A stretch of 64,000 nucleotides of DNA from Dictyostelium discoideum (taxonomy: Eukaryota): assembly GCA_000004695.1 (NCBI GenBank), contig CM000151.3:8224001-8288000 (forward strand). The letters are read 5' to 3'. The notes under the pieces were generated by a model that saw nothing but the letters and a program-made list of their open reading frames with translations, did not search any database and had not been told where the DNA came from. Positions 38,203 to 39,749 of this stretch are shown here, piece after piece (the stretch's first letter is position 1; each line of letters opens with the position of its first letter). The position numbers and the translations under genes were made by a program.

Positions 38203-38301
38203 ATGTTATTAAAAAGAGTAGATACTTTGACAATAACATTAATACTGATAATTCTTTTTTTTATTTATCAACCTTTATTTTTTGGTCATGTTAAAAATAG
38301 T

Positions 38302-38348
<47 letters not shown>

Positions 38349-39749
38349 TAATAATAATAATAAAAATAATAATTATTATTATTATAATTATAATATAAAA
38401 AATAATAATAAAAATAATAAAAATAAAAATAATAATAAAAATAAAAATAGTAATAATAATAATAATAATAATAATGACGGTAATGAAGCAGGATTACCCA
38501 ATTTAGAATTGAATAGTATAATTAATGAAGAAATAATTTATGATGATTTTAAATCAATACCAATAGAATTGAATGAAAATGAAAAGATAGTAAAGGATAT
38601 TGTAATGTCTAGAGAGTGTGAATATGTCGATTTAGTATATACATGGGTAAATGGTTCAGACCCAAAACATTTTGCAACAAAACAAAAATTAAAAAATAAA
38701 AGTCAAATAGTACCCGCTTCATCTTTTAGAGATATTGGTACTTTAAAATATTCTTTAAGAAGTGTTAGACAATATGCTCCTTGGATAAAGAATATTTATA
38801 TAATTACAGCTGACCAAAAACCTGATTGGTTCGACTCTGAAAATCCTGATAATGTTAGATTTATTTCTCATAGGGATTATTTTCACAATAAGTAAATATT
38901 TACTTCTTTTTTAAAAATAACCTCTTCTTAAATCATAATATATGTTAATTTTTTTTTTTTTTTTTTTTTTTCTTTCTTTTTTTTAGGTCAGATTTACCAA
39001 CATTTAATTCAAATGCGATTGAAGCAAATTTTTGGAATTTACCAGTACAAGTTTCAAATTGTTTTTTATATTTAAATGATGATATTTATTTTAGTAGACC
39101 AGTAAATCAGAGTGATTATTTTGATGAAAATTTTAATCAAGTTGTTTTTACAACACAAGATGAATTGTGGACAAAATCAGAAAATCTTAACAAATTTGAT
39201 CAATATAGTAAAGCGATACTATTCACAAATAGAGCATTAGCATCAGTTTGGCAAGAGATTGTGATAAGGAAATTCCCAGCTCATGGAGTTCAGATTTTTA
39301 ATAGAAAGATATGGTATAAAATTCAAGAAGAATTTGGTACAGCTTTAGAGATAACATCATCAAATAAATTTAGAAGTATTTTAGATTTTCAAATTGGGCA
39401 TTTATATAATCAAGTTGCCATGAAACATTCAAATTGTACAATCAAGAATGACTCTGATGTATTGTATATTTTATTAAATGTAGACAAATACGATCAACAG
39501 TTATCATTGGTGAATTCATCTAGAAATCAAATGAATACAGTATGTTTAAATGATGGTTTAGATTTTTTTAATAATGATCTTCAAAAGAAATTTGATAATA
39601 CATTTAATTATTTATTTCCAAATCCATCACCTTTTGAAATCAAACCATTACCATTTCAAAAAAATTTCATTTTTGCTATTATTTTTGTATTATTACTATT
39701 ATTAATTTTAAAAGTTTTAATAACAAAAAAGAAAATATTTATTTATTAA
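38203..39749 (+). CDS. Stealth-family protein (GlcNAc-1-phosphotransferase-like), type II membrane topology; two exons: 38203..38891 and 38987..39749 (intron 38892..38986, gtaaat...ag)
   Basis: Exon 1 begins with the N-terminal TM 'LTITLILIILFFIYQPLFF', followed by a poly-N tract. Stealth motifs: CR1 'DLVYTWVNGSDP' and CR2 'LKYSLRSVRQYAPWIKNIYIITADQKPDWFDSENPDNVRFISHRDYF'. These resemble human GNPTAB 'DVVYTWVNGTD' and '[46 protein letters not shown]'. The two ORFs 38203-38895 and 39165-39749 are in the same frame once the 95-nt intron is removed. The join continues 'SDLPTFNSNAIE...LYLNDDIYF' (CR3-like). There is a C-terminal hydrophobic segment. Confidence 0.65.

Follow-up and report, generated by a model that had tools for sequence, protein, structure and literature searches.

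The stretch of Dictyostelium discoideum DNA analysed here, referred to below as the window, is 64,000 nucleotides long and carries a Stealth-family gene at positions 38203..39749 of its forward strand (Table 1), whose two exons join in frame to encode a protein of 483 aa. The ATG at 38203 is the first to follow an upstream stop, stands in the context AAAAATG and supplies a start Met that is shared by the orthologues. Reading the intron unspliced leads to an immediate stop, and its GC content is 12.6% as compared with 19-24% in the exons. The splice boundaries and the in-frame join put forward in the original prediction are borne out: the frame is kept, the match to Stealth region CR2 is continuous over the join at aa 230, and the identical phase-2 site is occupied by an intron in the annotated orthologues of two other Dictyostelium genomes (121 and 206 nt) as well as in three paralogues (93, 77 and 124 nt). 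In the two orthologues, intron identity is 65% and 32% versus exon-2 identities of 96% and 85%. Judged by its sequence, 38203..39749 is a real, intact two-exon gene. No second Stealth gene or tandem duplicate was found in a search within the window. An 81-bp duplicated element is present upstream of the Stealth gene and is not conserved at the orthologous loci.

The neighbours of the gene encode Vps39, two proteins of 186 and 229 aa, and one large protein that is unknown. Based on the supplement of PMC3188802, the region around vps39 (DDB_G0279169) on D. discoideum chromosome 3 is collinear with the window; of the IDs given there for the ten named gpt genes (gpt1-gpt10), none maps to that neighbourhood. 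The cysteine proteinase genes cprF and cprG (DDB_G0279185/7) might be nearby, to judge by ID number; a six-frame motif scan of the window revealed no papain-type gene.

Table 1. Features of the Stealth-family gene and its predicted product (positions are those of the window; aa, residues of the 483-aa protein).
Feature	Position	Strand	Residues	Details
Exon 1	38203..38891	+	aa 1-229 + 2 nt of codon 230	
Intron	38892..38986	+		95 nt, GTAAAT...TTTTAG, GT..AG, phase 2, long poly-T tract
Exon 2	38987..39749	+	codon 230 third base to stop	TAA stop at 39747..39749
N-terminal TM helix (predicted)	38224..38283	+	aa ~8-27	Kyte-Doolittle window >1.8; AF2 helix 8-27
Asn/Lys/Tyr-rich low-complexity stalk	38293..38514	+	aa ~31-104	predicted disordered, pLDDT <50
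Stealth CR1	38620..38703	+	aa 140-167	DLVYTWVNGSDP; PF17101 E 2.1e-12, 47.0 bits (cut-off 27.2)
Stealth CR2	38725..39140	+	aa 175-281	split by intron; PF11380 E 1.5e-41, 141.3 bits (cut-off 39.4); motifs PTFNSNAIE (S238, I241, E242) and LNDD (N260, D261, D262 at 39075..39083)
Stealth CR3	39279..39413	+	aa 328-372	PF17102 E 6.3e-9, 36.1 bits (cut-off 24.2); proposed catalytic base H329 (39282..39284), phosphate-binding R359 (39372..39374), Q365
Stealth CR4	39522..39665	+	aa 409-456	PF17103 E 4.7e-9, 36.5 bits (cut-off 27.4); motifs CLND (N418 = human N1151) and FPxPSPFE
C-terminal TM helix and basic cytosolic tail (predicted)	39666..39746	+	aa ~457-476 (helix)	hydropathy up to 3.36; AF2 helix 453-482

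A HMMER search against the Pfam profiles Stealth_CR1-4 recovered all four regions in order and above their gathering scores, separated by 7 (CR1-CR2), 46 (CR2-CR3) and 36 (CR3-CR4) residues. The family assignment originally made on CR1-CR3 thus stands, and CR4, which had gone unmentioned, can be added to it. Notch, DMAP and EF-hand domains gave no Pfam match at E<=1 (PF00066, PF06464, PF18440 and PF26737 included), in keeping with the description of the product as a compact member of ~480 aa devoid of the spacer, Notch and DMAP modules.

The topology of the protein departs in part from the type II arrangement that had been proposed. The N-terminal helix, preceded by the short basic tail MLLKRVD, is predicted to act as a signal-anchor with a cytosolic N-terminus, as that proposal had it; a plain type II layout appears incomplete, since hydropathy and the AF2 model both indicate a second, C-terminal TM helix, which suggests a two-anchor hairpin. 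The latter helix is followed by the predicted cytosolic tail TKKKIFIY, containing KKK, and recurs in the two syntenic orthologues (P0001 and P0002) and in a D. firmibasis protein (P0006), in contrast to the other compact paralogues. The stalk varies in length among orthologues, the proteins measuring 483, 480 and 465 aa. Seven N-glycosylation sequons lie in the middle part of the protein; together with the two TM helices and the positive cytosolic ends, they fit a lumenal catalytic domain, which is the compartment and orientation that we predict.

Sequence matches in the PDB covered aa 142-447 and comprised GNPTAB catalytic constructs (5e-36) and M. tuberculosis CpsY (1e-30). The AF2 model has a mean pLDDT of 84.6, with values >90 through the catalytic domain, and a Foldseek search with it returned GNPTAB catalytic domains as the best matches (5e-26). 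The top 13 matches were all GNPTAB, Drosophila PTase or CpsY, with E values from 5e-26 to 2e-19, followed by GT-A glycosyltransferases at ~4e-5. The protein is therefore predicted to adopt the GT-A-like Stealth fold.

The equivalents of human GNPTAB S385, I388, E389, N406, D407, D408, H956, R986, Q992 and N1151, whose roles are reviewed in section 6 of PMC9388126, are all kept. Five of the active-site residues (D261, D262, H329, R359 and N418) are each at least 90% conserved in a 59-sequence alignment, and H329 and R359 are spaced by 30 residues, exactly as are human H956 and R986. With the catalytic residues conserved and a modelled fold resembling GNPTAB and CpsY, the proposal that the gene encodes a candidate phosphoglycosyl transferase appears credible. 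Three differences from GNPTAB were noted in the active-site area, namely R322 to S174, H959 to Q332 and N1153 to G420. Almost all Stealth proteins have an Arg at the position of human R322, so that its replacement by S174 may entail reduced or altered activity; mutation of R322 in GNPTAB lowers activity at least 20-fold (PMC9388126). In the window gene and in its sister group, probably the gpt8/gpt9 tandem pair, Ser, Ala or Gln takes the place of this Arg. Conceivably, the absence of the Arg together with the C-terminal helix is the sign of a phosphoglycosyltransferase that has been neofunctionalised and acts on a new acceptor, such as a membrane-proximal GPI or glycolipid; we regard this as unlikely.

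Syntenic orthologues of the window gene, two in number, were found only in two close relatives. Comparison with the D. citrinum orthologue gave a dN/dS of 0.17-0.25 (about 0.2), and the window gene is under purifying selection. Against the nearest orthologue the ratio was 0.46-0.55, a value obtained at just ~4-7% divergence. The exons differ by ~4% from those of the assembly GCA_054859355.1, labelled 'D. discoideum'; the whole 18-kb region is similarly diverged (87-92% identical), and hence nothing points to diversifying selection on this gene in particular. The youth and restricted distribution of the gene, the loss of the near-universal Arg and the higher of the two dN/dS ratios could also be read as signs of a recent duplicate that is decaying or catalytically weakened, on its way to becoming a pseudogene or serving as a non-catalytic partner of its paralogues. 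This we consider improbable, because three genomes retain an intact reading frame and intact splice sites, the ratio is low over the longer comparison, and the residues for metal binding, phosphate binding and base catalysis are all retained; in addition, the replacement of the Arg by Ser is common to the sister paralogues (P0005 and relatives), which makes it a stably inherited change and argues against decay.

In a neighbour-joining tree built on 345 trimmed columns, without bootstrap, the window protein groups among compact dictyostelid and amoebozoan proteins, and insect GNPTAB and a Notch-bearing Acytostelium protein (P0052) form another clade. The window protein shares 61-64% identity with the P0005 group and 38-43% with more distant paralogues. 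The nearest relatives of its gene are a tandem pair, probably gpt8/gpt9; unlike that pair, the gene stands singly beside vps39. It is a young paralogue in the dictyostelid expansion of 'gpt' (putative glycophosphotransferase) genes and resembles gpt2-gpt10 in being compact, with CR1-CR4 only, an N-terminal anchor and a phase-2 intron just before the motif (S/D)xLPTF. The window gene and its syntenic orthologues differ from most gpt paralogues in the extra C-terminal TM helix. Recent horizontal transfer from bacteria was considered and rejected on account of the intron shared with paralogues, the host-like composition and the nesting within the amoebozoan clade.

The original prediction also implied a link between the gene and the Man-6-P/methylphosphate tag of lysosomal enzymes, which we find unsupported, since this step is assigned to gpt1 and the window protein lacks the gpt1 linker and falls in a separate clade. 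gpt1 (XP_638036) is a Notch-bearing gene, different from the one described here. Its disruption by Qian, West & Kornfeld in 2010 reportedly abolished the activity. N-glycan GlcNAc-P transfer in D. discoideum has been assigned to gpt1 (DDB_G0285815; PMC3188802 supplement, PMC11795075, PMC6994554, PMC9388126), the only one of the ten named gpt members to carry this assignment, and the others are expected to participate in peripheral N-glycan modification or Ser/Thr glycophosphorylation (PMC3188802). Set beside the dictyostelid GlcNAc-1-phosphotransferase type, the window protein does not conform: its 40% identity to the Acytostelium P0052 extends over CR1-CR2 only, the linker of P0052 and its ~430-aa CR2-CR3 insert (which contains PF00066) are missing, and so is the 39-aa CR1-CR2 linker of D. 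discoideum gpt1 (PMC9388126). Most likely, therefore, the lysosomal mannose-phosphate tag is not made by the product of the window gene.

Comparison with GNPTAB itself leads in the same direction. The two proteins have in common the Stealth core, the metal, phosphate and base residues, the predicted GT-A-like fold and membrane helices at both the N- and C-terminus, as in a hairpin precursor; such a hairpin is not sufficient for membership in the GNPTAB/gpt1 group. Unlike GNPTAB and gpt1, the window protein possesses no spacer-1/RRM region, Notch repeats, DMAP domain or EF-hand, and without a CR2-CR3 insert there is no room for the site-1 protease activation site of GNPTAB. The catalytic fold and residues shared with GNPTAB could nonetheless belong to a (redundant) UDP-GlcNAc:glycoprotein N-glycan mannose GlcNAc-1-phosphotransferase acting towards the Man-6-P-GlcNAc or methylphosphomannose tag, and an engineered minimal GNPTAB (S1S3) without Notch and DMAP is active, even hyperactive (PMC11418123), so that a compact enzyme could in principle phosphorylate mannose. 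Of the alternatives weighed here we hold this one the least probable. Besides the assignment of the step to Notch-bearing gpt1, a member of a different clade, the acceptor-side residues R322 and N1153 of GNPTAB, which are implicated in positioning the terminal mannose, correspond to S174 and G420 in the window protein; as the Drosophila homologue illustrates, even a Stealth protein of the GNPTAB type may have no part in the M6P pathway (PMC11418123); and D. purpureum methylphosphorylates its N-glycans (PMC11795075) with three gpt genes only (PMC3188802 supplement).

In the size of its catalytic domain and its contiguous CR1-CR4, the window protein is like the bacterial Stealth proteins M. tuberculosis CpsY (PDB 8j2n) and Neisseria SacB/CsxA, CpsY being the best structural match when scores are normalised by target length (TM 0.85-0.89). 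Unlike these, the window gene is eukaryotic and has a spliceosomal intron, and its product bears two predicted anchors, an Asn-rich stalk and N-glycosylation sequons. Proximity to the bacterial proteins in fold and size, and the proposal that Stealth proteins act as hexose-1-phosphoryl transferases in the synthesis of phosphodiester-linked polymers (PMC1285062), might point to a processive or oligomerising phosphoglycan synthase of the SacB/CsxA kind, building chains of repeating sugar-1-phosphate on a primer. We attach little credence to this possibility. The cited literature describes no poly(sugar-phosphate) polymer of D. discoideum, and the phosphoglycans mentioned for the organism (reference list of PMC1285062) are short: GlcNAc-1-P-Ser, carried by cysteine proteinases of the lysosome, Fuc-GlcNAc-1-P-Ser, carried by proteins of the spore coat, and Fuc-1-P-Ser. 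Moreover, in contrast to the bacterial capsule polymerases, the gene is not part of a capsule or exopolysaccharide cluster; it has no operon-like context, its neighbours being Vps39 and the three proteins listed above, and it lies in a locus of 21% GC with Dictyostelium synteny.

Taken together, we judge it likely that the window gene encodes a functional, lumen-facing Stealth hexose-1-phosphate transferase that is distinct from gpt1 and anchored in the membrane at both ends. This reading builds on the gene structure, family, fold, conserved catalytic residues, purifying selection and phylogenetic placement obtained here, from which, for donor sugar, acceptor, compartment and orientation, we infer the following scheme. 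The enzyme would reside probably in the Golgi or ER, with its catalytic domain facing the lumen, held away from the N-terminal signal-anchor by the disordered, Asn-rich stalk of ~75 residues and, after the last catalytic motif, leading into the second helix almost without a spacer. By analogy with GNPTAB, the donor would be a UDP-sugar, most likely UDP-GlcNAc; the conserved GlcNAc-contacting residues found here are also conserved in Stealth proteins with different donors. On the same analogy, D262 and N418 would hold Mg2+, R359 would bind the phosphate that is transferred and H329 would take the proton from an acceptor hydroxyl, such that sugar-1-phosphate may be transferred in one step, with release of UMP and a phosphodiester left on the acceptor. 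The enzyme would work without the modules that regulate GNPTAB (spacers, Notch, DMAP, EF-hand and site-1 protease cleavage). As the protein is not the gpt1 N-glycan mannose enzyme, its acceptor is most likely something else; candidates are Ser/Thr of proteins, in phosphoglycosylation of the GlcNAc-1-P-Ser type that D. discoideum is known to carry out, or a peripheral position on a glycan.

According to a glycomics paper of 2025, little is known on dictyostelid phosphoglycosylation (PMC11795075), and the cited literature names no gene for the transferases that make the three unusual, phosphodiester-linked D. discoideum phosphoglycans listed above. Stealth proteins have been proposed for them (PMC1285062), and the compact gpt paralogues, put forward in 2005 and 2011, are still the candidates (PMC1285062, PMC3188802). 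The window gene is an ordinary member of this already described gene family and opens no new question, though two of its peculiarities, the missing counterpart of R322 and the anchor at the C-terminus, can be tested. Its value lies in a correct annotation, from which the misleading link to mannose-6-phosphate has been removed, and in one more candidate for phosphoglycosylation, with a clean gene model and a defined, expressible domain that is predicted to be lumenal.

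The two-exon gene on which the original prediction centred proved correctly placed, its hand-derived join included (see table), and on sequence grounds we regard it as real, correctly delimited and a member of the Stealth family. It lies in DNA of 21% G+C whose composition resembles that of dictyostelids. Its exons join in frame to give 483 residues, and unspliced reading of the intron meets a stop codon at once. The Pfam CR2 match runs unbroken over the splice join (residue 230), which independently supports the intron. All four Stealth regions occur in order, each above its curated Pfam threshold, so that the family call, first made on CR1-CR3, stands and CR4 can be added.

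Features of the Stealth protein gene and its neighbours (nucleotide positions in the window; aa, residues of the 483-aa protein; residue roles from PMC9388126)
Feature	Position	Strand	Remarks
Exon 1	38203..38891	+	ATG at 38203, frame open to 38891
Intron	38892..38986	+	95 nt, GTAAAT start, TTTTAG end, 12.6% G+C
Exon 2	38987..39749	+	second open frame; TAA 39747..39749
N-terminal TM helix	aa ~8-27		hydropathy, helix in AlphaFold model
Stalk	aa 31-104		Asn/Lys/Tyr-rich, predicted disordered, pLDDT < 50
Stealth CR1	aa 140-167		Pfam E 2.1e-12
Stealth CR2	aa 175-281		Pfam E 1.5e-41
Stealth CR3	aa 328-372		Pfam E 6.3e-9
Stealth CR4	aa 409-456		Pfam E 4.7e-9
C-terminal TM helix	aa ~457-476		hydropathy, helix in AlphaFold model
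Uracil sandwich (human V82, I388)	V145, I241		retained
GlcNAc contacts (human S385, E389, N406, Q992)	S238, E242, N260, Q365		retained
Ribose / Mg2 (human D407)	D261		retained
Mg1 (human D408, N1151)	D262, N418		retained
Proposed base (human H956)	H329		retained
Beta-phosphate (human R986)	R359		retained
Ser for R322-equivalent Arg	aa 174; 38722-38724		
Large upstream ORF	33029-37279	+	1416 aa, no Pfam domain above threshold
Two small genes between Stealth gene and Vps39	40672-41361 and 39837-40397	-	conserved, syntenic in both related genomes
Vps39 homologue	41860-44784	-	CNH, Vps39_1, Clathrin/VPS repeat, zf-Vps39_C
420-aa protein	45607-46869	-	long low-complexity N-terminus, then C-terminal DUF202 membrane domain, E 2.4e-10
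Two adjacent ORFs	48981-49784 and 50070-50558	-	pepsin-type motifs, VDTGST in one, VDSGTS in other

The closest database relatives are Dictyostelium proteins, namely P0001 from a D. discoideum isolate (91%) and P0002 from D. citrinum (84%), followed by paralogues at 38-64% identity, a ranking drawn from a protein collection that seems to lack reference-strain proteins. In all three loci the Stealth gene is preceded by the large unknown protein and followed, on the opposite strand, by the 186-aa gene, the ~229-aa gene and the Vps39 homologue; given this common gene order, P0001 and P0002 are positional orthologues. Their gene models were re-derived by testing every GT..AG excision for one that reproduces the annotated protein, and each has one intron (121 and 206 nt) at the same phase-2 position. 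The paralogues P0005, P0009 and P0015 also carry a phase-2 intron (93, 77 and 124 nt), in the codon directly before the (S/D)xLPTF motif, and this shared site makes the intron ancestral to the dictyostelid compact family. Intron identity to the two orthologues is 65% and 32%, versus 96% and 85% for exon 2. By the Nei-Gojobori method dN/dS comes to 0.17-0.25 with the D. citrinum orthologue; with P0001, so close that substitutions are few, it is 0.46-0.55. The gene is under purifying selection. A frame kept intact in three genomes, the conservation of the catalytic residues and a dN/dS of about 0.2 speak against a decaying duplicate.

Several features of the surrounding DNA were also recorded. 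Window 29000-49000 is about 87-92% identical throughout to the corresponding locus (L001) of GCA_054859355.1, an assembly labelled Dictyostelium discoideum; the window and that isolate clearly belong to different lineages. The L001 gene matched by 30089-37578 at 89% is also aligned by 29007-32362 at 76%, and the 1416-aa ORF thus appears to have a tandem paralogue directly upstream. An ~81-bp tandem duplication (37908-38064) is located 5' of the Stealth gene in the intergenic region, 140-295 bp before the ATG. Each copy begins AATGTCACTTTG(C/T)TGGCATTTTTTTT...TTGAT(A/T)GATTTGGTT; within the window the 16-mer TGTCACTTTGYTGGCA is confined to these two places, against a chance expectation of 0.02, and it was not found in the two orthologous loci. 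The 229-aa protein resembles a divergent small GTPase broken by poly-Asn, and its D. citrinum orthologue gives faint Ras/Roc matches; for the 186-aa protein no family was matched. The two pepsin-type ORFs probably belong to a single intron-interrupted gene for a secreted aspartic protease, whose upstream piece opens with a signal-peptide-like sequence. From its Vps39 homologue and the coordinates in the PMC3188802 supplement, the window corresponds collinearly to about 1.72 Mb on D. discoideum chromosome 3.

The type II topology first proposed is incomplete: the second helix, which follows CR4 with no gap, makes the protein a predicted hairpin, as in the GNPTAB precursor. Both tails are basic (MLLKRVD and TKKKIFIY) and seven N-x-S/T sequons lie in the middle part, an arrangement that, with the two helices, fits cytosolic ends and a lumenal catalytic domain. 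AlphaFold pLDDT is mostly above 90 for residues ~110-450. Of the compact dictyostelid paralogues compared, only this protein, P0001, P0002 and D. firmibasis P0006 have the C-terminal helix.

A PDB sequence search retrieved GNPTAB catalytic constructs from zebrafish and human (E about 5e-36), CpsY of M. tuberculosis (E 1e-30, aa 142-447) and the Drosophila enzyme. The same structures fill the top 13 Foldseek hits of the predicted model (E 5e-26 to 2e-19; TM 0.85-0.89 to CpsY, normalised by target length), ahead of generic GT-A glycosyltransferases (about 4e-5). Residue equivalents were hand-mapped from the PDB-search alignment and checked in a 35-sequence alignment, with roles taken from PMC9388126 section 6. 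Three human positions are changed, H959 to Q332, N1153 to G420 and R322 to S174. Nearly all other aligned sequences, among them bacterial, fungal, insect and Entamoeba proteins and other dictyostelid paralogues, keep the Arg equivalent to R322. Ser, Ala or Gln stands in its place only in the window orthologues, the sister P0005 group and P0006, a derived change that this one young subclade shares.

If the enzyme works as GNPTAB does, its lumenal domain would bind a UDP-sugar with Mg2+ through D262 and N418, R359 would neutralise the transferred phosphate and H329 would activate the acceptor hydroxyl; sugar-1-phosphate would then pass to the acceptor in a single step, freeing UMP. UDP-GlcNAc is the most likely donor; the protein retains five of the six residues that contact GlcNAc, but these are conserved family-wide and do not discriminate between donors. 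In GNPTAB the acceptor mannose is thought to be positioned by R322 and N1153 (PMC9388126); loss of both, together with the existence of gpt1, argues against N-glycan mannose as acceptor. The phosphoglycans cited for D. discoideum in PMC1285062 include GlcNAc-1-P-Ser, Fuc-GlcNAc-1-P-Ser and Fuc-1-P-Ser, obvious candidates for the product. The C-terminal helix would keep the catalytic domain near the membrane, which is no more than compatible with a membrane-proximal acceptor. A capsule-like polymerase, the other activity considered, has against it that no polymer is known and that the gene-cluster context is missing.

The PMC3188802 supplement lists a gpt family of "putative glycophosphotransferases", ten in D. 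discoideum and three in D. purpureum, and labels gpt1 (DDB_G0285815) alone "N-glycan: GlcNAc-PO4-transferase"; its text expects the others to perform peripheral N-glycan modifications or Ser/Thr glycophosphorylation. In later glycomics papers (PMC11795075, PMC6994554) the enzyme identified for the GlcNAc-1-P intermediate is gpt1, the only member whose biochemical function they give as proven. The Notch-bearing Acytostelium protein P0052 has an almost identical copy of the 39-residue CR1-CR2 linker of this enzyme (XP_638036), which GNPTAB structure papers (PMC9388126) reused. The window protein has no such linker; it is 40% identical to P0052 over CR1-CR2 only and lacks its ~430-residue insert. 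As originally supposed, no Notch or DMAP domain was detectable by Pfam search, nor any EF-hand. In a neighbour-joining tree (345 trimmed columns, no bootstrap values) the protein falls within the dictyostelid compact Stealth clade, with Entamoeba and Pelomyxa proteins nearby, and insect GNPTAB and P0052 form a clade apart. A redundant N-glycan phosphotransferase is accordingly unlikely, and the suggested part in lysosomal Man-6-P tagging is disfavoured: that step is assigned to gpt1, from whose type the comparison sets this protein apart in linker, insert and clade.

The closest paralogues, P0005 and its 376-aa neighbour, form a tandem pair, probably gpt8/gpt9 given the adjacent IDs of those genes; P0015 adjoins a 2-hydroxyacid dehydrogenase gene, as gpt10 adjoins ldhA. 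Such head-to-tail Stealth pairs were seen in three Dictyostelium genomes (L003 6001-9194, L004 6001-9247, L008 6232-9411), downstream of an RMD1-3/TPR gene and of a 147-149-aa gene of unassigned function, itself repeated in tandem three or four times. None of the ten gpt IDs in the supplement maps to the chromosome 3 vps39 neighbourhood collinear with the window. The missing linker, insert and Notch, the separate clade and the gpt1 assignment together point to one of the scattered genes of the gpt expansion rather than to the enzyme that phosphorylates mannose. Its family has been described in Dictyostelium since 2005-2011, and what is mildly unusual in this gene is confined to the subclade-specific loss of a near-universal Arg and the extra C-terminal anchor.
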